Shown here: piece after piece, positions 1,721 through 39,213 of the stretch | How positions within the stretch are numbered: the first letter of the stretch is position 1 | How the letters are laid out: each line of letters starts with the position of its first letter | Virus record (IMG/VR): IMGVR_UViG_2562617057_000005 | DNA: 39,213 nucleotides | Reading direction: 5' to 3' (one strand) | Source: a virus | Lineage: Duplodnaviria; Heunggongvirae; Uroviricota; Caudoviricetes | Translations under genes and position numbers: made by a program | Notes under the pieces: generated by a model | The model's database searches: none | What the model saw: only the letters and a program-made list of their open reading frames with translations | Told to the model about the DNA's origin: nothing

Positions 1721-1920
1721 TGAGTGGTAAAATTTCTAATCCGTGTTCCGTGAATGGAGAAATATTGCCCATGCCCGATAAAAATAGCAACCCATCTGAC
1801 TTTTCCGAAGATATGAAAGGATGCGTTACCTTTGAGTCAGAACGTTATGGACCATCAGGCGATTCATCAGATAACTGTTCTTCTCAGTCTGATGACGATG
1901 CACCGCCACCACGGGACTAA
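1720..1920 (+). CDS. hypothetical small acidic protein (66 aa), doubtful
   Basis: ATG ORF with a weak ribosome-binding site; acidic Ser/Asp-rich C-terminus; converges on the 214-aa gene with a 3-4 nt overlap. May be non-coding end sequence. Confidence 0.2.
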   Translation: MSGKISNPCSVNGEILPMPDKNSNPSDFSEDMKGCVTFESERYGPSGDSSDNCSSQSDDDAPPPRD

Positions 1921-2561
1921 TCTTTCTGCCGTGCGCTAATAGCTTTATTTCTGGTTCGTCTGATCCTCACCATGGCAATCTGATCTGCAGGGATATAGGT
2001 TGCCATCGCTCCCCAGCTTTTACTTTCAACATCTTTTTCAATCCATTCATCGCGCCCCGGTTTTTTTTCATGAGTGACATACATCACTATGTCTTTTTCC
2101 ACTCCTAACACAAAAGAACCGCTGGCCTGGCCTTCAAATTTCCCCGGATTTTCAGAAAGCAGCACAGTACCATTCTTCAGATAGACATACGCCTCGCTGA
2201 TATAGTATCCATGTTGATCAAACATACGCATCCAGGCAGAGGGGGTATCATCAGACCATGATATATCCTTATTTCTGAGGAATCTGTACATCCATTTACG
2301 CCCATATTTTCTCCATAATGCAGCGTATGCAAAAGCGCAAAGAAGTGTTGGAGGTGTCGCCAGCCACGAATTCAGACCTGCCCACATAACAGCCTGGTAA
2401 ACCATCATTGACAGCAAACCAAAAATCAGCGTCGAAAACGTCACCTCAATGGGTTTGTGATGGTTCTTCAGCCCCACGTTCGCAATAAAATAGCCGATAT
2501 AACCACTGGTGAGCGTCACCAGCGTTGCCCATGGCAGATTCAGCAAGGATGCATCAAACAT
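1917..2561 (-). CDS. hypothetical membrane protein, three predicted N-terminal TM helices plus a ~120-aa soluble C-terminal domain; candidate prophage cargo (superinfection exclusion or abortive infection-like)
   Basis: 214-aa ORF with GGAGG about 5 nt upstream of the ATG. Hydrophobic stretches at roughly residues 11-31, 40-63 and 68-83. Separated from the upstream mor operon by a hairpin terminator, so probably its own transcription unit. Confidence 0.7.
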   Translation of the reverse strand: MFDASLLNLPWATLVTLTSGYIGYFIANVGLKNHHKPIEVTFSTLIFGLLSMMVYQAVMWAGLNSWLATPPTLLCAFAYAALWRKYGRKWMYRFLRNKDISWSDDTPSAWMRMFDQHGYYISEAYVYLKNGTVLLSENPGKFEGQASGSFVLGVEKDIVMYVTHEKKPGRDEWIEKDVESKSWGAMATYIPADQIAMVRIRRTRNKAISARQKD

Positions 2562-2911: not shown

Positions 2912-3298
2912 TTAATCCCGGCTGTCATCCGGTTCATCATCGTCTTCGAATAACTGCCCCTGCAACCGGCTGATTTCTTCCTTTCTTACGCGCTTCACCA
3001 GGTTGTAAATCCAGGGAACTGAAACCCTGAATCTGCGGGACAGTTCGTGGTGGTTACGTCCGTTAAACGCCTCATAGATTTCACGGTCACGCTGGCTTAT
3101 CTTCCATCTCATCCCCATAGGAAAATAAACGTTTTGCCCGCCCCAGACCTGCATCATGCGGTTCGCGACGGCCTGACCAATCTGGTCGGCAACTTCGGGC
3201 TCAATATCAATAATCTCGCGAACGGTCTCAGAGGTATGCTGTGCCAGCTCCACCAGGAGTTCCGGCCCTTTACTTCGAAACTGATTCAGGTCGCTCAT
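2912..3298 (-). CDS. mor: Mor/C-family transcriptional activator (middle operon regulator-like)
   Basis: 128 aa; the segment GGQNVYFP...EIYEAFNGRNHHELSRRFRVS...YNLVKRVRK parallels Mu Mor (GGGQVYIP...FNGRN...). GGGAG ribosome-binding site upstream. Confidence 0.8.
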   Translation of the reverse strand: MSDLNQFRSKGPELLVELAQHTSETVREIIDIEPEVADQIGQAVANRMMQVWGGQNVYFPMGMRWKISQRDREIYEAFNGRNHHELSRRFRVSVPWIYNLVKRVRKEEISRLQGQLFEDDDEPDDSRD

Positions 3299-13990: not shown

Positions 13991-14120
13991 ATCGTATTCT
14001 CCTCTGTGAATAATTCATCGTTTATCCTGCACATCCCGTATCCCCGGCTCTCTTAACGCGCTTTAAAATCCTTTGCGCCCTGTATTTGTGATGCTGTCTC
14101 CACCAGACAAGGAGACATTC

Positions 14121-17033: not shown

Positions 17034-18346
17034 CAGCAGCCATTCAGCTGTATCCCTACCAGCAGGCGTGGTTTCTGGATCGTGCCCGTTTCAAGATTGG
17101 TATGTTTGCCCGCCAGACGGGCAAGACGTTCACCACCACGCTGGAACTGGTTGACGACTGTTTTGAAACAGAGGCATCAGGGGGACGCACTCGCTGGGTG
17201 ATCCTCTCGCGCGGGGAACGTCAGGCAAAAGAAGCCATGGTGGAGGGGGTGAAAAAACACTGCAGCGCCTACCGGATGGCGGCCCGTGAAATGGAGAGTT
17301 ATTACAGGGCCGAAAGTGGCGAACGCTACACCATGCTTGAGGTGGAGTTACCCGGTGGCTCCCGTATCACGGCCCTGCCGGCAAATCCCGACACGGCCCG
17401 TGGTTTTGCAGCTAACGTCTTTCTGGATGAGTTCGCCTTCCATGCTGACAGCCGCAAAATCTGGACCGCCCTGTTTCCGGTCATTTCCAACGGCTACAGA
17501 CTGCGTGTGACATCGACGCCGAACGGCAAGGGAAACAAGTTTTATGAACTGATGACCAGCAACGCCCTTGAAAATGTCTGGTCACGTCACATCGTGGATA
17601 TTTACCGTGCCGTGCGCGACGGCCTTCCGCGTGACATTGCACAGATGCGACAGGCGCTCAACGATGATGACGCCTGGGCACAGGAGTTTGAACTGAAGTG
17701 GCTGGATGAGGCATCGGCCTGGCTGACGTTTGAACTGATTGACGGCGTGGAGCACGATGCTGCCGGGTTGCCGGTGCACTATACGGGTGGCCCCTGCTTT
17801 GTGGGGGTGGATATTGCTGTCCGTAATGACCTGTTTGTGATCTGGGTGCTTGAACAGGTGGGGGATGTCTACTGGACCCGGGAAATCATCACCCGTAAAC
17901 GGGCCACCTTTGCTGAGCAGGATGCTTTGCTGGATGACGTATTTTTCCGTTATCGCGTGCTGCGCTGCTGTATGGATCAGACAGGAATGGGGGAAAAGCC
18001 TGTGGAAGATGCTCAGGAGCGCCACGGCAGGAGTCGTGTGGAGGGGGTGATATTTAACAGCCCGAACAAGCTCACCCTCGCGACCCGTGGCAGGGAGATG
18101 TTTGAGGACCGCCGCCTGCGTATTCCGGCGGGAGATGTGGTACTGCGCAGTGATCTGCATAAACTCCGTAAGATCACCGGACCTACCGGAGCGCCTCGCT
18201 TTGTGGCGGAAAGTGATGCAGCAGGTCACGCCGACCGTACATGGGCCTGTTTTCTGGCTATTAACGCCACTGACGGACCGTCAGGGCCGGTGGTGGCGCG
18301 TTCGCGGCGCCGCCGTGAAGCCGCCCACATGCTGGAGGGATTCTGA
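17030..18346 (+). CDS. terminase large subunit (Mu gp28-like)
   Basis: 438 aa with ATPase-like N-terminus (ARQTGKTF) and a C-terminal nuclease-like region; start overlaps the small-subunit stop. Confidence 0.8.
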   Translation: MTAAIQLYPYQQAWFLDRARFKIGMFARQTGKTFTTTLELVDDCFETEASGGRTRWVILSRGERQAKEAMVEGVKKHCSAYRMAAREMESYYRAESGERYTMLEVELPGGSRITALPANPDTARGFAANVFLDEFAFHADSRKIWTALFPVISNGYRLRVTSTPNGKGNKFYELMTSNALENVWSRHIVDIYRAVRDGLPRDIAQMRQALNDDDAWAQEFELKWLDEASAWLTFELIDGVEHDAAGLPVHYTGGPCFVGVDIAVRNDLFVIWVLEQVGDVYWTREIITRKRATFAEQDALLDDVFFRYRVLRCCMDQTGMGEKPVEDAQERHGRSRVEGVIFNSPNKLTLATRGREMFEDRRLRIPAGDVVLRSDLHKLRKITGPTGAPRFVAESDAAGHADRTWACFLAINATDGPSGPVVARSRRRREAAHMLEGF

Positions 18347-20646: not shown

Positions 20647-21105
20647 ATGGCTTCCGACAATCTGGTCAGTATCTCCATTAACGATGACTCCCTGCGCCGG
20701 AGCCTCCGTGCGCTGGATCTTGCTGCCACAGACATGGAGCCCGCGATGCGCAAAATCGCCGGAACCCTGCTGGCGGAAACACAGTTTAACTTTCTTGATG
20801 AGGGGCGTCCGGGGTGGATGCCCTCGCTGGCAGCGGAAGAACGTGACGGACAGACACTGCAGGATACCGGGCGTCTGATGGGGTCAGTATCAACCGACCA
20901 TGACGACCGGCAGGCTGTTGTGGGGACCAACGTTGTTTACGGTGCCATTCACCAGTTCGGGGGTAAAACGGGGCGTAATGAGTCCGTTGAACTTCCGGCC
21001 CGCCCGTTCCTGCCGGTGACGGGGGATGGAGAACTACAGCCTGAAGTGGTAATCCCCATCCTCGATACCATTGTCCGCCATCTTGAATCAGCGGCCCGTC
21101 GCTGA
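20647..21105 (+). CDS. virion morphogenesis protein (Mu G-like)
   Basis: 152 aa at the Mu G position; GAGAGG ribosome-binding site. Confidence 0.75.
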   Translation: MASDNLVSISINDDSLRRSLRALDLAATDMEPAMRKIAGTLLAETQFNFLDEGRPGWMPSLAAEERDGQTLQDTGRLMGSVSTDHDDRQAVVGTNVVYGAIHQFGGKTGRNESVELPARPFLPVTGDGELQPEVVIPILDTIVRHLESAARR

Positions 21106-21319
21106 GGTTTCTCCCTTCAGGCGGGTGATTTATCATTGCCAGCAACTGAGGGGCTGTATTACCTTTATAAAGGCTTTACAGCCTCTGTTTTATAACCGCC
21201 TCCGGTTCACCGCATTGCTTTCCCTGTCCTTCTCCCCTGATGTTTTCTAAAGCAGATTAAAATCGCCGGGCCTGCATTTCTCACAAACTGTCTCCGACAA
21301 CATAACGCGGGACAGCAAA
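21106..21319. promoter_or_regulatory. G-I intergenic region: candidate late promoter and/or central gyrase-site-like element; contains a dyad
   Basis: 214-bp non-coding gap in an otherwise tightly packed operon. Dyad GCTGTA-TTA-CCTTTATAAAGG-CTT-TACAGC at about 21153-21182 with a perfect 12-bp core. Confidence 0.35.
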
Positions 21320-22435
21320 ATGTCAGCCATTCACATTTTTAAAGCCGGTACTCATACCGATATGCACGGCAAAAAACTGCCGTTCACGCCAGACGATCTT
21401 GCCGCCTGCGTGAAAGCCTATGACCCGTCCGTCCATGAAGCACCACTCGTGATTGGTCATCCCAGAACGGAAGACCCGGCGTGGGGCTGGGTGAAAACCC
21501 TGTCGCTCAGCGGCGTCGATCTGATGGCAGAGCCTGCCCAACTGGACCCGCAGTTTGCTGAGATGGTCACCGACGGACGATTCAAAAAAGTGTCCGCCTC
21601 TTTTTACCTCCCGGATTCACCGTCCAATCCGAAGCCCGGCGTACTCTACCTGCGCCATGTGGGCTTTCTCGGGGCACAGCCACCTTCCGTCAAAGGGCTG
21701 AAACAGGTGTCCTTCAGTGAGCAGGAAGAAGGTGTGGTGGAGTTCGCCGACTGGCAGGCCATCACGAATGCCTCACTGTGGGGAAAGCTGCGCGATTTTC
21801 TGATCGCCCGCTTCAGTCTGGACGAGGCAGAAAAAGTCCTGCCGGAATGGCAGCTCAACAGTCTGCGCGAAGAGGCGTACCGCGACACACCGTCGCAGGA
21901 TGCAGCAGGTGCGCAATTCAGTGAGACAGGCCAGGTGCCGTCTTCCGCAAGTAACGAGGAATCATCGATGACAAAAGAAGAGATTGAAGCCCTTCAGGAG
22001 GAGAACCGCCACCTGAAGCAGCAGGCTGCTGATCGCGATGCGCGTGATGCACAGGCCAGACAGGAGCAACTGCATAAGGACAATGTGGCCTTTGCAGAAA
22101 AACTGGTCGCAGAGGGTCGTCTGGCTCCCCGCGCCTCCTCCGTGGTGGTTGCCCTGCTGGATGCCGTCGCCGGTGGCGACAAGCCGGTGGAGTTTGCTGA
22201 GGGGGAAAGCCGCACACCGCTGGCCACCGCCTTCCGTTCATTGCTCTCCGACGGGGAGCCGGTGATGAACTTCGCCGAACAGGCCACAAAGGATCGTGTC
22301 GGCGACGCGGTGAAGGTGGATGTGGCGGAGTTTGCGGAAGCCGATCCTGAGCGTCTGGCCCTGCATCAGAAAGCAGTGGCCCTGTCGAAAAAAGAAGGCA
22401 TCAGCTATGAGGCTGCTGTCGCACGCTGCCTGTAA
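21320..22435 (+). CDS. head protease/scaffold protein (Mu I-like)
   Basis: 371 aa; Glu/Ala-rich C-terminal half consistent with a scaffold domain; located between G-like and major capsid genes as in Mu. Confidence 0.8.
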   Translation: MSAIHIFKAGTHTDMHGKKLPFTPDDLAACVKAYDPSVHEAPLVIGHPRTEDPAWGWVKTLSLSGVDLMAEPAQLDPQFAEMVTDGRFKKVSASFYLPDSPSNPKPGVLYLRHVGFLGAQPPSVKGLKQVSFSEQEEGVVEFADWQAITNASLWGKLRDFLIARFSLDEAEKVLPEWQLNSLREEAYRDTPSQDAAGAQFSETGQVPSSASNEESSMTKEEIEALQEENRHLKQQAADRDARDAQARQEQLHKDNVAFAEKLVAEGRLAPRASSVVVALLDAVAGGDKPVEFAEGESRTPLATAFRSLLSDGEPVMNFAEQATKDRVGDAVKVDVAEFAEADPERLALHQKAVALSKKEGISYEAAVARCL

Positions 22436-27131: not shown

Positions 27132-27160
27132 AGGGGCTCCGGCCCCTTCTTCTTAATCTC
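27132..27160 (+). terminator. possible hairpin terminator/attenuator between tube and chaperone genes
   Basis: Stem AGGGGC / GCCCCT with a 4-nt loop, followed by TCTTCTT. Confidence 0.3.
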
Positions 27161-27221
27161 CTTTAATATCCGTCACGCGCTTCTCCCGACATACTGCCCT
27201 GAACTTACACAGGAGCACATC

Positions 27222-27714: not shown

Positions 27715-30192
27715 ATGTCGGGACAGTTTTCAGTCGGCGTTGTTATCGGCGGGATGATTGGCAGCACATTCCGTTCTGCAATGAGCGGTACCCGCCGTGC
27801 GCTTGATTCCCTGAGCGATACCTCACGCCGCCTGCAGGAACGTCAGAACGCTTTAACCCGTGCAACAGAACGTTATGGTCAACTGGGTTCTTCCCGGATG
27901 CAGCGTCTCAACAGCGAGCTGCTGCGGGTAAGCCGCACCATGGAGCAAATTGAGCGCCAGCAGCGCCGCCTGTCAGCGGCATCAGCGACCAGTGATGCGC
28001 TGAAAGCTAACCGCATGGCGCTGTATGGTCAGGGACTTGAAGCGTATGGCATGACACAGACTGTTTATCATACGGTTTCCCCGGCCGTTCAGCAGTCCAT
28101 GTCTTTTCAGGACAAAATGATTGATATGTCGATCACCGCAAAATATGACAATAAAACGCGGGATGCACTTGCCGGACAGATAAAAGGCTGGGCACTTAAA
28201 TACAATCAGTATCAGGATGAGCTGCAGGAGGCGGTGGGTTCGCTCATCAGCGACAATATTGATAACTTGTCAGATATCGGTTTTCTGATGCCGGATATTG
28301 CCCGCGCGGCAACGGCAACACGCACGTCATCTCAGGACTGGGCAAAAGTGGCCGCTGTCTGGCAAAACTCCCTGAAAGGTGCCGCCAGAGATTTTGGTGC
28401 CGTCCAGAATATTATGGCTTATGCCGGTGATCAGGGGTCATTTGAAATTCCGGATCAGGTCAAATGGATGCAGTCCCTGGCCCCAATGATGGCGGGCGTT
28501 GCCAGTGGAAAAGAGGCTGTTGCTGAAATCGGGGCCAGTCTCCAGATAGCAAAAATCGGTGCGGGCTCCACCGACGAAGCGGCCAATAACTTTAAAAACT
28601 TTCTTACCAAAATTTTTGCCCGCGATACTCAGAAACAGTTTGCTGACCTGGGTATTGATTTGCAGGGATCTATTGCGAGTTATAAGGCTGCGGGGATCTC
28701 TCCGATTGAAGGGATGTTGAGTGTTATAGAGCGTTACCTCAATACAAAAAGCCCCGAAGCTCTGGCCGGGTTCAAATCCGCCATGAAAATAAAAAATGAT
28801 ACGGCAAGAGATGAGGCACTTCAGGCTCTGGCAAAAAACTTTGGTCTGGGCGATATGTTCGCGGATATGCAGGTCATGGCGTTTATCCGCCCGATGCTGG
28901 CCAACATGGACAGGTACCGCGAGATTCGTGCCGGTGCCCTCAGGGCTGCGGATAACGATTTGCTTGCCAGTGCTTACGATCAGCGGCTGAAATCTCCCTC
29001 TGAAGCCACTAAAGCGCTTATGGTCAGCAGTCGCGATCTGGCTATTACGCTGGGCGATCAGCTCGCCCCCTCTTTTATTTCTCTGGCACAGGAGTTGATC
29101 CCACTCATTCAGGGGGCAAAACACTGGGTGGCGACTCACCCGCAATTTGTCAGTGGGGCTTTTAAGCTCATCAGTGCGCTCCTTGCGATTAAGATAGCGA
29201 CTATTGGCCTCAAACTGGGGCTGAATCTTCTTATTTCCCCCTTTGTGAACGTCTGGAAAACTGCTGTTTTACTCCGGACCAACTGGCGTCGACTGACTAC
29301 CGCACTCGGAGAAGGTGGCAAATTACGCTGGCTTGTCACTGGATTCAGCCGACTGACCCGCGGAGGACTGAAACTCAGCAAAGTTCTGACGGGCAGCCTC
29401 GTTCGCGGTTTTATGATTGCTGCACGCGCCGTTCTCTGGATTGGCCGGGCGCTGATGATGAATCCCATCGGTCTCGTTATCACCGCCGTTGCGGCAGCAG
29501 CTTACCTTATCTACCACAACTGGGGCGCAGTCAGTAGCTGGTTTAAACAGCGCTGGGCTGACATTCAGGAAGCCTTTAACGGCGGCATCGCGGGAACTGG
29601 TAAACTGCTGGTTAACTGGTCTCCGGCGGGGCTGCTTTATAAAGCCTTTGCGGCTGCGCTGAAATATCTCGGCGTTGATCTGCCGGCGAAGTTCACCGAC
29701 TTCGGTGGTCATCTTATCGACGGGCTGATAAATGGCATCAGAAACAAATGGGAGTCGCTCAAAACCAGCGTAACCGGAATGGGTGACAGCATCAGTGACT
29801 GGTTCAGCGAAAAGCTGGGCATCCATTCGCCGAGTCGCGTGTTTATGGGCTTTGGTGACAATATCGCGCAGGGTGCCGCCATTGGCCTGCAGCGAACCAC
29901 TCCGCTTGCTGCACTGGCCGGGCAGCGCCTGGCCGCTGAAATGACACCGGATGTTCCCCGTATCCCGTCGCCGGAAATCATGGCTGCCGGATATTCAGGC
30001 CGTGGCGCAACTGCAACTGGCGGTGGAGCGTCTGGCGGTATCCAGGTCAGCTTTAATCCTCAGTTTTTCCTCAATGGTAAGGAAACCGCAGCGCCTGCCG
30101 GGCTGACTGGAGCCCTGAATATGAGCCTGCATGAGCTGGAAAAAATGCTGGAGCGTCTGCTGGCTCAGAAACAACGTAAGGAGTACCGCTGA
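27715..30192 (+). CDS. tail tape measure protein
   Basis: 825 aa, helical/repetitive, with hydrophobic segments; GGAGG upstream; position after the chaperone. Confidence 0.9.
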   Translation: MSGQFSVGVVIGGMIGSTFRSAMSGTRRALDSLSDTSRRLQERQNALTRATERYGQLGSSRMQRLNSELLRVSRTMEQIERQQRRLSAASATSDALKANRMALYGQGLEAYGMTQTVYHTVSPAVQQSMSFQDKMIDMSITAKYDNKTRDALAGQIKGWALKYNQYQDELQEAVGSLISDNIDNLSDIGFLMPDIARAATATRTSSQDWAKVAAVWQNSLKGAARDFGAVQNIMAYAGDQGSFEIPDQVKWMQSLAPMMAGVASGKEAVAEIGASLQIAKIGAGSTDEAANNFKNFLTKIFARDTQKQFADLGIDLQGSIASYKAAGISPIEGMLSVIERYLNTKSPEALAGFKSAMKIKNDTARDEALQALAKNFGLGDMFADMQVMAFIRPMLANMDRYREIRAGALRAADNDLLASAYDQRLKSPSEATKALMVSSRDLAITLGDQLAPSFISLAQELIPLIQGAKHWVATHPQFVSGAFKLISALLAIKIATIGLKLGLNLLISPFVNVWKTAVLLRTNWRRLTTALGEGGKLRWLVTGFSRLTRGGLKLSKVLTGSLVRGFMIAARAVLWIGRALMMNPIGLVITAVAAAAYLIYHNWGAVSSWFKQRWADIQEAFNGGIAGTGKLLVNWSPAGLLYKAFAAALKYLGVDLPAKFTDFGGHLIDGLINGIRNKWESLKTSVTGMGDSISDWFSEKLGIHSPSRVFMGFGDNIAQGAAIGLQRTTPLAALAGQRLAAEMTPDVPRIPSPEIMAAGYSGRGATATGGGASGGIQVSFNPQFFLNGKETAAPAGLTGALNMSLHELEKMLERLLAQKQRKEYR

Positions 30193-32939: not shown

Positions 32940-32995
32940 GATTTCTTAAACGCCTTTAATATCGGCGTTCCCTTCCGGGGGCAATACTGCCCCCC

Positions 32996-37020: not shown

Positions 37021-37548
37021 TTACTCAGGCTTTTGTGGCCATTCTGGCTTTGCCGTATCCACACGGCTGACCAGAACACTGTAGCGTTCCCATGCTTCCA
37101 GTCGTGTGCGTTCCTCGTCCGTCGCCATATTCAGCCTGACAGCGCGTTCCAGCGGCTGGATGACTGATTCAGCTTCGGAAAGCAATGCGGCCTTTTGTGA
37201 TTCGGCCTGTTGTTGCTGTTCGTCAGCCGTATAAATCCGTTTAACCACAGCTCCGTCCTTAAACATCCACTTACCGGAATCATCAGCACGACGATTAGCT
37301 GTAATATCAGGAACCTCAACGACGCTATAACCTTCAGGGTTAAGCGTGGAGGCATCTTTGGTGATGGCGACAATAATATTATTTGCATCGTAAACAATCT
37401 TTATTGTGTCTGGCTGAAAGTTCTTCACTTCCTCATACCAGTTTTTTCCGTCCTCAGAGTAAAGCCAGATGACTCCGTGCTTCTTTGTTAACTCATACTG
37501 CTCCACTGTTTTAGCATTACCTGCTTTTATGTTCTTTAAGTGCATCAT
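37021..37548 (-). CDS. alternative tail fibre assembly protein (Mu U'-like)
   Basis: Start at the [10 protein letters not shown] Met pair of track ORF 37021..37581; paralogue of 36459..36992. Confidence 0.8.
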
Positions 37549-37549
37549 A

Positions 37550-38560
37550 TTAAATACTCGCCACATTATACCAGGTGCCATTTATATACTTTTGCACTGG
37601 CCTGTAATGAACGCCTGCAATATTATCGGCAGAGTTTTTTCCGGTATCCTGTACGTTAATCCCCGTCAGTACATAGCCTGACGGGCACTGAAAATTCCAT
37701 GTTTGCCAGTTGTTCACTCCATAATATTGCTGTGAACCAAGCCGGACATCTTTCACATATCTGGAATCAAAATTGCCATAGTTGCCGGGAATAACTTGCG
37801 AGCCGCAAAGCCAGTTCCCGTTATTATCCATGTACGCCTGACCATCGGTGCCATTGGCTGTCCTTGAGTTATTAATCATGTAGATGCCAAATTGCTTATT
37901 TCCCAGACCGCCAATCATAAATTTGCGGTCGGCATGGTCCTGACGGAGCAAAGCCTGAGCACCATCAGTGGATACCGCATTACGGCCCAGAATAACATTC
38001 TGGTCACGCATATGAATCCACATGCCGGTACTACTGTTAATTGCAAAACGGTTTGCAAATATATCCCCTGTAACATCAAGACCATGCCCCATGCTTATCC
38101 GGCCAGTTCTGAGATTAAGCGTAAAGGGGCGTAGTGGCCCTATATTACCATTTTCCCCTTCATTCTCTCGTGTAGGGATGATATGCAGGCATTCTTCAGA
38201 ACGACGAAAAATGGCACCAAAAGATGAATTAAATATCCTCAGTGCATTGACTGTCGATATTTTCACTTCACTGCTGAAAAGGGCTTCAACAAGAACAGAC
38301 AAAGCATTCCATTTAAGATTCATCAGGTCTTTAGGCCGGGTGCCAATGATGCGGTGTCTCCATTTGAAATATTCATTGCCGTTGTTGCCTGTTTCAAACC
38401 ACATGTAGGAATCGGTGTCTGCATCCGAATTATTTTTAAACCCAATCTTTGCCCAGTCAGTATTTCGAATCCAGGCAAGGATTGAGTCGTTTTCAAAAGT
38501 AAGTCCACCGGACAAGGTATCGCCTGTCTTTTGGACAGCGTTATCAGCCTTGTTTACCGT
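37550..38560 (-). CDS. alternative tail-fibre variable C-terminal segment (Mu S'v-like); no own start, expressed after inversion
   Basis: Open frame runs through the right gix-like site in the same phase as the fibre gene through the left site (both read GLQE across the core); ends [12 protein letters not shown]. Confidence 0.8.
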
Positions 38561-38582
38561 TTCCTGTAAACCAACGTTTTCG
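38561..38582. repeat. gix-like recombination site, right (TTCCTGTAAACCAACGTTTTCG)
   Basis: Inverted copy of the left site. Confidence 0.7.
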
Positions 38583-38631
38583 TCTTTATCCCTACCTATA
38601 CCAACTATGTATTTTTCACGAAACAAAGAGG

Positions 38632-39213
38632 ATGTTTTTTATGCAAATTGGCTATATTCGTGTGTCAACAAATGACCAGAACACGGATTTACAACGCAAT
38701 GCACTGAACTGCGCAGGATGTGAACTGATTTTTGAAGATAAAATCAGCGGAACGAAATCAGCCAGACCGGGATTGAAAAAACTGCTCAGAACGCTATCAG
38801 AAGGAGATACGCTGGTTGTCTGGAAGCTGGACAGACTGGGCAGAAGTATGAAACACCTGATCACGCTTATTGAGGAATTGCGGGAAAAAGGTGTTAATTT
38901 CCGTAGTCTGACGGACAGCATTGACACATCAACACCCATGGGGCGTTTCTTTTTTCACGTCATGGGGGCTTTAGCCGAAATGGAACGTGAATTAATTGTA
39001 GAGCGTACACTGGCCGGACTGGCAGCAGCACGTGCACAGGGGCGTATTGGTGGACGTCGTCCGAAACTGACAAAAGAGCAACATGAACAAATAGCAAGGC
39101 TGATCAAAAATGGCTATAGCAGGAAACAGTTGGCAATTATTTACGATATCGGTATATCGACGATTTATCGTTATCACCCTGTAGAGGAACTTCAAACTCA
39201 AGCTGAGTTGTAA
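38632..39213 (+). CDS. gin: serine recombinase DNA invertase, Gin/Pin/Cin/Hin family
   Basis: 193 aa, complete (stop at 39211-39213). MQIGYIRVSTNDQNTDLQRNAL...VVWKLDRLGRSMKHLI...GRFFFHVMGALAEMERELI..GRIGGRRPKLT matches Mu Gin closely as I remember it; catalytic Ser in YIRVST. Confidence 0.95.
   Translation: MFFMQIGYIRVSTNDQNTDLQRNALNCAGCELIFEDKISGTKSARPGLKKLLRTLSEGDTLVVWKLDRLGRSMKHLITLIEELREKGVNFRSLTDSIDTSTPMGRFFFHVMGALAEMERELIVERTLAGLAAARAQGRIGGRRPKLTKEQHEQIARLIKNGYSRKQLAIIYDIGISTIYRYHPVEELQTQAEL

Follow-up and report, generated by a model that had tools for sequence, protein, structure and literature searches.

The 214-bp gap between the G-like and I-like genes of a BcepMu-like transposable prophage is best explained as the junction of two late operons, at which a candidate terminator hairpin, built around a conserved 16-nt core that we call Box A, is followed downstream by a predicted Mor-type late promoter (P_I). 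The feature in the gap is real and functional. We put a probability of about 0.6 on the whole model, in which P_I would depend on Mor and Box A would contribute a terminator hairpin together with a probable protein-binding role. The model was built from sequences, their conservation, their recurrence, and their geometry, and from these we infer binding, transcription start, termination, Mor dependence, and any role of Box A.

The window, that is, the whole stretch of 39,213 nucleotides analyzed here, carries a BcepMu-like (Bcepmuvirus) transposable prophage that is syntenic with BcepMu. Escherichia phage PhiKM (Bcepmuvirus) is 98.4% identical to the region, Klebsiella phage KP12 and Escherichia phage Phi06_2974 B match it at ~86%, and the I-like gene matches BcepMu, phiE255, and further transposable phages. 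RefSeq annotation of two E. coli relatives follows the BcepMu layout, which comprises a leftward early operon with a Mor-family gene at its far-left end, transposase A and B, a repressor region, and a rightward lysis/head/tail block with an invertase at the right end. The G-I gap region was found in 637 of 5426 complete E. coli genomes, ST131 strains among them. By comparison with a copy inserted in sgbU (NZ_CP146564), the left prophage end was placed at window position 1581 (TGAAGGGACGTGAGATAAAT...) and the right end just outside the window; this near-identical sister prophage occupies 2385-40535 (38.15 kb). The left-end sequence (1581-1625, TGAAGGGA...) contains two presumed transposase-binding repeats, CGTGAGATAA(A/T)T, at 1589 and 1612, and the end motif G[CT]G[AC]GATA[AT][AT]T also occurs in BcepMu and at the right end of the sister prophage. 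Between the left end and the Mor gene lies an orf of 214 aa (1917-2561, minus strand) with no assigned function; a further short minus-strand orf, likewise without an assigned function, sits at the position annotated in the sister prophage (L070 3460-3696). At the other end, positions 37021-39213 form an invertible tail-fibre segment, in which minus-strand tail-fibre and assembly genes (37021-38626) adjoin a gene for a Gin-like recombinase, which begins at 38632 and continues beyond the window. The tail-fibre region is unlike that of otherwise near-identical prophages.

The G-like orf ends with a TGA at 21105 and the I-like orf begins with an ATG at 21320, which leaves a gap at 21106-21319 (Table 1). 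It is the sole gap of the late region longer than 160 bp and the sole sizeable one among the head genes; the other late-region gaps, of 85, 157, and 56 bp, all lie among tail genes. No reading frame across the gap was conserved in diverged lineages, and the original prediction of a single sizeable, non-coding gap among the head genes was thus borne out, with exact coordinates. Several other identities for the gap were considered and rejected. A hidden small gene was dismissed, since the lineages share neither a frame nor a peptide there and the orf of 59 aa at 21071-21250 gave no hit in Pfam, and a known RNA family was dismissed for want of any Rfam match in the gap. A central transposase-binding site was also discarded: the end-repeat motif YGYGMGATAWWT, of which 1589 and 1612 hold perfect copies, had no match in the gap at up to 2 mismatches, and its window-wide matches were at chance level. 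A by-eye check of the gap for IHF and Fis consensus sites gave no convincing match. The dyad that had been described there is exact in all its parts, with GCTGTA (21153-58), TTA, CCTTTATAAAGG (21162-73), CTT, and TACAGC (21177-82), and a repeat search lengthened it to 19-nt arms (21149-67 and 21168-86) that are 79% complementary. The window contains 12 perfect 12-bp palindromes, versus 9.9 ± 3.5 in shuffled sequences; the 12-bp palindrome alone is unexceptional, and the signal that matters is conservation.

Table 1. Coordinates of genes, promoter elements, and structural features in the window
Feature	Position	Strand	Remarks
Mor/C-family activator gene	2912..3298	-	Pfam PF08765, E 5e-41
Predicted promoter P_lys: CTTAA-CGCGCT-TTAAA, 22 nt, GATGCT	14052..14095	+	ahead of holin gene
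G-like virion morphogenesis gene	20647..21105	+	last gene of lysis-to-G late operon; Pfam PF05069, E 1e-22; Mup31/G in PhiKM annotation
Block GGCGGGTGATTTATC	21120..21134	+	conserved among enterobacterial lineages only; GC hairpin in its place elsewhere
Hairpin: 10-bp outer stem AGGGGCUGUA/UACAGCCUCU, internal loop, inner stem CCUU/AAGG	21149..21186	+	from folding
12-bp perfect palindrome CCTTTATAAAGG	21162..21173	.	two outer left bases differ between lineages (CC, TC, GC, TT)
Box A, 16-nt core TTTATAAAGGCTTTAC	21164..21179	.	invariant in 10 lineage representatives; one base missing in group 2
U-rich tail GTTTTATAA	21187..21195	+	after hairpin, which is followed by GUUUUAU
Predicted P_I, Mor box TCTAA-AGCAGA-TTAAA (5-bp halves, 6-bp spacer)	21246..21261	+	core invariant across lineages
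Predicted P_I, −10 hexamer CAAACT	21284..21289	+	22 nt after Mor box
Dyad CTGTC(T)CCG/CGGGACAG	21288..21315	+	overlaps −10/+1 region and ribosome-binding site of I
I-like head maturation protease/scaffold gene	21320..22435	+	first gene of next late operon; annotated peptidase or head maturation protease in relatives
Hairpin AGGGGC-TCCG-GCCCCT	27132-27147		upstream of tail promoter
Predicted tail promoter: CTTAA-TCTCCT-TTAAT, 22 nt, CATACT	27152..27195	+	ahead of tail assembly and tape-measure genes
Predicted baseplate promoter: CTTAA-ACGCCT-TTAAT, 22 nt, AATACT	32945..32988	+	ahead of baseplate W gene

G-I gaps were gathered from 46 loci, which gave 25 distinct sequences, and a pattern scan added more lineages. 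In an alignment of 10 lineage representatives, ranging from E. coli-type prophages to BcepMu and with a mean column identity of 59%, the invariant columns fell into three clusters: TTTATAAAGG.TT, which is Box A; T..TAAA....ATTAAAA; and A...TG.C, ~22 nt further on. The invariance of the Box A and Mor-box columns across lineages indicates that the gap is under selection, in keeping with the conserved element that had been suggested there. One of the relatives, L133 (IMGVR_UViG_2574179710_000003, minus strand, ~1-700), keeps the Mor, transposase, and lysis genes, lacks the head block equivalent to window 16.5-24.2 kb, and has the cassette of Box A, Mor box, and −10 fused directly before a gp37-like gene; L133 is possibly a tailocin-like remnant without heads.

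P_I is a predicted Mor/C-activated late promoter before the I-like gene, with a predicted transcription start near 21296. The second and sixth bases of its −10 hexamer (A2 and T6) and the G that follows are invariant in the 10 lineages, and no −35 or sigma-70 consensus promoter was found on the + strand of the gap. Mor/C promoters lack a −35 but have a recognisable −10 and, centred at −43.5, a 16-bp dyad; in the Mor site of Pm, a GC-rich spacer of 6 bp separates two inverted repeats of 5 bp (PMC4390567, PMC2582627). The prophage matches the Mor/C promoters of Mu in each of these respects: it encodes a Mor/C activator (PF08765), its 16-bp 5-6-5 element lies 22 nt before the −10 and near −43 without a −35, and four such promoters head its lysis/head, head, and tail operons. 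The pattern TYYTAA-N5-WTTAAWATC, which was derived from these four sites of the window, occurs there exactly four times (14051, 21245, 27151, and 32944; 0.02 expected), always on the + strand and in the gaps before holin/lysis, I, tail assembly/tape measure, and baseplate W. BcepMu independently carries near-identical 20-mers (19/20 bases), (C/G)TAAAGCCGATTAAAAGACC, at two sites only, before holin and I. In the window, BcepMu, and a Salmonella relative, exactly 22 nt separate each 5-6-5 promoter box from a hexamer that has A2 and T6 (CAAGAT and GATGAT in BcepMu, TATTGT in the Salmonella relative), and all four window promoters have a −10 of the form xAxxCT and then G. The geometry relative to the −10 in the four window promoters, the two of BcepMu, and the one of Salmonella is the same as in Mu Pm, which reads AGTAA-AGCCGG-TTAAT, the same 22-nt spacing, and TATCCT. 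On an alternative reading, the −10 would lie inside the 20-mer (TAAAAT), which leaves the fixed downstream xAxxCTG unexplained. A late promoter before I had been suggested for the gap; a predicted one of the Mor/C type does precede the gene, located outside the palindrome and 75-125 bp downstream from it. A tblastn search with the prophage's own Mor-family protein, Mu Mor, and Mu C revealed no second Mor/C copy in the prophage, and the single Mor/C-family protein presumably acts on all four Mor boxes.

The dyad that covers the −10/+1 region and ribosome-binding site of I (Table 1) resembles one at the lysis promoter before the holin gene (GTCTCC/GGAGAC, 14096-14117). If transcription starts as predicted, only the 3′ arm of these dyads is transcribed, and the dyads might act on read-through transcripts.

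Upstream of P_I, the hairpin that contains Box A is probably the intrinsic terminator of the lysis-to-G operon. Folded as RNA, the whole hairpin had a free energy of −19.6 kcal/mol (z −3.3), and 0 of 200 shuffled sequences were as stable. On the transcribed strand, a stable G+C-rich hairpin is thus followed by a U-run, albeit a short one, and the opposite strand of the hairpin has none; a simple terminator scan listed the inner part of the hairpin plus CTGTTTTATA. Hairpin and GUUUUAU together would most likely terminate the lysis-to-G transcript. Flanking arms fold Box A into a hairpin of 9-13 bp in four lineages (window, KP12-type, L199, and BcepMu), three of which (window, L199, and BcepMu) also have a U-rich tail after it; in BcepMu, a 13-bp hairpin formed from the same core is succeeded by UUUGGUU. 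Retention of hairpin and U-run is mixed: BcepMu and L199 retain both; the KP12-type lineage, whose U-tail is not conserved (CGCTTTGC / CGCUUUGC), and L218, which has neither extended arms nor a U-run, have lost the U-run; and the arms are lost in group 2 (left arm deleted), L133, L144, and L158. Several lineages have a separate hairpin upstream of Box A (group 2, L206), in L206 a canonical terminator 45 nt upstream. Termination by Box A would be lineage-specific at best.

The conservation of Box A goes further than that of the hairpin. Box A is identical in the L218 lineage and in BcepMu, a Burkholderia phage that is otherwise unalignable, and phiE255 has a single change (TAT for TAC). One enterobacterial lineage has lost the outer arm GGGGCTGTATTA, and there a different 12-bp GC hairpin abuts Box A; several other lineages lack this arm too. 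Since this arm can be deleted and the outer left bases of the palindrome vary, the conserved unit is the asymmetric 16-mer TTTATAAAGGCTTTAC and not the dyad as it had been drawn. Read on the minus strand (21165-21180), Box A is Mor-box-like, TGTAA-AGCCTT-TATAA; in BcepMu it reads CGTAA-AGCCTT-TATAA, versus CGTAA-AGCCGA-TTAAA for the promoter box of that phage. The 8-mer GTAAAGCC occurs at only 2 sites in the 36.7 kb of BcepMu, Box A and the P_I Mor box, and 4 of the 5 BcepMu copies of TAAAGCC are at such elements. At the Box A position, the Salmonella relative has a regular Mor-box-like 16-mer, TCTAA-ACCGTT-TTAAA. The right half of Box A is TATAA, versus the TTAA core of all promoter boxes, and on neither strand is Box A followed, at the canonical spacing, by a hexamer with A2 and T6; Box A itself is therefore not a promoter of the Mor type. 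From Box A to the Mor box the distance is 82 bp in the window; spacings of 56, 66, 76, and 86 bp in four lineages suggest helical phasing, a hint weakened by the further spacings of 72, 78, and 82-85 bp.

Within the window, Box A is unique except for a 14/16 copy in the tape-measure gene. There, a second perfect palindrome, GCTTTATAAAGC (29634-29651), matches Box A together with its flank (TTTATAAAGCCTTTGC, 29636); the 98% lineage alone has this copy, which the 74% lineages lack, so a coding coincidence is the probable explanation. A role for Box A as a general late-activator site was rejected, as it is absent from the other three late promoters.

What, then, maintains Box A? Conceivably it is the core of an intrinsic terminator and nothing else, with no protein bound and with its conservation due to RNA-level constraints or shared ancestry, but we consider this unlikely. 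It would account for the stable hairpins around the core in the window, KP12-type, L199, and BcepMu and for the U-rich tails in the window, L199, and BcepMu, and a terminator is expected at this operon boundary; another precedes the tail promoter (27132-27147). However, what terminators normally preserve is structure, and a stretch of 16 nt shared by phages of Burkholderia and E. coli is not expected of them. Group 2 has lost the left arm, L133, L144, and L158 have no arms, neither the KP12-type lineage nor L218 has a U-rich tail, and L206 has its own canonical terminator upstream. With the arms or the U-run missing in some lineages, or a separate terminator upstream, termination cannot explain the invariance of Box A. 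A core that is invariant beyond the needs of a terminator and resembles a Mor box suggests an additional protein-binding site. Most likely, then, Box A serves to bind a protein, and a number of lineages have put it to additional use within a terminator hairpin; among possible binders the Mor homologue comes first, and Mor binding is a guess. We regard it as very improbable that Box A is the activator site of a promoter of its own, be it a leftward one, which would give RNA antisense to the 3′ end of G, or a second rightward one. Its minus strand does read as a 5-6-5 Mor-like box, group 2 relatives have TAAATC exactly 22 nt beyond it, and the window lineage has TATAAC (21191-21196) near the canonical distance on the + strand; yet the hexamers at the canonical spacing itself are CTGGCA (minus) and TAACCG (plus) in the window and GCGCTG and CCTGCT in BcepMu, all four lack the A2/T6 signature, which the real promoters show without exception, and each candidate −10 is restricted to one lineage.

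The gap had also been proposed as an analogue of the Mu strong gyrase site (SGS), from which a centrally placed gyrase would supercoil the prophage processively and aid end synapsis for replicative transposition. The geography agrees. The palindrome lies at 50.8% of the NZ_CP146564 prophage, ~52% (an estimate) of that in the window, and 51.0% of BcepMu, and the annotated gyrase cut in Mu is at 48.7% of the genome, 20 bp after G (Mu record), so the claim of a central location between G and I holds in all three relatives. The gap is, moreover, strongly conserved non-coding DNA, it resembles the Mu SGS in having A/T-rich dyad elements beside the I promoter, and for one transposable phage of Pseudomonas a candidate SGS at the centre has been put forward (PMC5977238). 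In the right arm of the Mu SGS there are TTTAA-type repeats, comparable to what some relatives have at the Box A position, and a perfect 5-6-5 dyad, TTAAA-CCGGTA-TTTAA (17916-17931; L073, NC_000929), without a −10-like hexamer at the canonical spacing. This promoter-less dyad raises the possibility that A/T-rich Mor-box-like elements upstream of the I promoter are an old shared feature, used by Mu for gyrase wrapping.

The sequence comparisons argue in the other direction. In a Smith-Waterman alignment of the gap with the Mu SGS (Mu 17815-17945), the score was 17, versus 17.2 ± 2.3 in shuffles, and against the whole Mu G-I gap 32 of 300 shuffles scored equally well; the comparison with Mu that had been put forward as a check thus revealed no similarity beyond shuffles. 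The gyrase motif is 130 bp long, and the Mu SGS has a value of 14.3 on the published matrix (Sutormin et al., PMC6379681). As a proxy for the motif, we used the GC-normalised correlation with the S/W pattern of the 133-bp consensus from the same paper. This proxy is too weak to settle the question; it ranked the Mu SGS itself ~10th in 36.7 kb and gave 0.10-0.18 at the palindrome, a best value for the gap of 0.31 at 21300 (rank 31), and rank 122 for the BcepMu gap. The raw match to the 133-bp consensus misses even the Mu SGS, and A/T phasing, by which the gap was not outstanding, is uninformative in that it fails to single out the Mu SGS either. Unlike the Mu SGS, the gap has no outstanding predicted gyrase motif by the proxies used. 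In addition, the left arm of the dyad is deleted in a sister lineage, and the central position follows from the conserved gene order. In the replacement experiments of Pato, only the site from a close Mu relative in E. coli O157 Sakai substituted for the Mu SGS and promoted Mu replication (review PMC10052514). The head-less L133 keeps its cassette before a tail-region gene, which fits a transcriptional role. The prophage of S. Typhi CT18, which we take to be BcepMu-like, was reportedly also tested as a replacement by Oram and Pato in 2004, and failed. A functional Mu SGS analogue is, on balance, quite improbable. As the outer dyad is lineage-specific and the similarity to the Mu SGS does not exceed that of shuffles, the analogy has no support from sequence; gyrase binding depends on DNA shape, so it stands as unsupported rather than refuted. 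We hold equally doubtful a broader version, in which Box A would be a family-wide central cis element that acts on DNA, with gyrase or an architectural protein of phage or host organising the prophage domain and promoting end synapsis, as a counterpart of the Mu SGS with an unrelated sequence.

Our preferred reading thus remains a Mor-dependent P_I preceded by a Box A hairpin that serves as terminator and probably binds a protein. Under this model, the single Mor/C-family activator (2912-3298) would bind 21246-21261, centred ~43 bp upstream of the start, and recruit sigma-70 RNA polymerase to the −10 CAAACT, which lacks a −35, so that transcription of the I-to-head/tail operon would begin near 21296. 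The same promoter design would drive the lysis/head operon and the two tail operons. The Box A hairpin with GUUUUAU would terminate the lysis-to-G transcript, and the same activator may sit on Box A without a promoter, where it could tune read-through or the activity of P_I.

The nearest parallel to this arrangement is Mu Pm, whose box, AGTAA-AGCCGG-TTAAT, is nearly that of BcepMu, CGTAA-AGCCGA-TTAAA. As with Box A, the Mor box at Mu Pm overlaps a terminator-like hairpin and T-run, AAAGCCGG-TTAA-TCCGGCTTTTTTT, at an operon boundary, and Box A shares its Mor-box-like start, GTAAAGCC; the hairpin that overlaps the Mor site at Mu Pm is presumably the Mu early terminator t9.2. The two differ in that the Mu box serves a promoter with a canonical −10, whereas Box A has none and the true promoter box is 82 bp further on. 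The half-sites of the prophage are of the Mor type (TTAA), unlike the C sites of Mu (TTAT/ATAA). In contrast to the Mor-then-C cascade of Mu, the prophage has one activator and the middle step seems to be missing; its early region is inverted relative to that of Mu, and its promoters are predictions from sequence, unlike those of Mu.

A regulon of four predicted Mor promoters offers a way to predict late gene expression in a phage family present in 637 of 5426 E. coli genomes, and a single activator with no separate C suggests a cascade simpler than that of Mu. Box A, unchanged between Burkholderia and E. coli phages, lends itself to testing whether a central cis site is needed by transposable phages beyond Mu; should it serve only as a terminator or as an auxiliary site for the activator, the region would be phage regulatory DNA of an ordinary kind.

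More distant relatives have a different sequence at this place. In L010 (from a Thermomonas sp. genome; I protein ~36% identical), L057, and L058, the G-I gap holds another palindrome that shares the TTATAA core, CGCGTTATAACGCG. Across Xanthomonadales relatives, the half-sites of Box A and the Mor box may co-vary (CGCGTTATAACGCG versus CACGC-N6-GCGTG); the pattern is suggestive, not clean. The candidate activator box of L010, L057, and L058 is GC-rich and reads CACGC-GCGCCC-GCGTG, followed after 22 nt by GAGATG or GAGACT.
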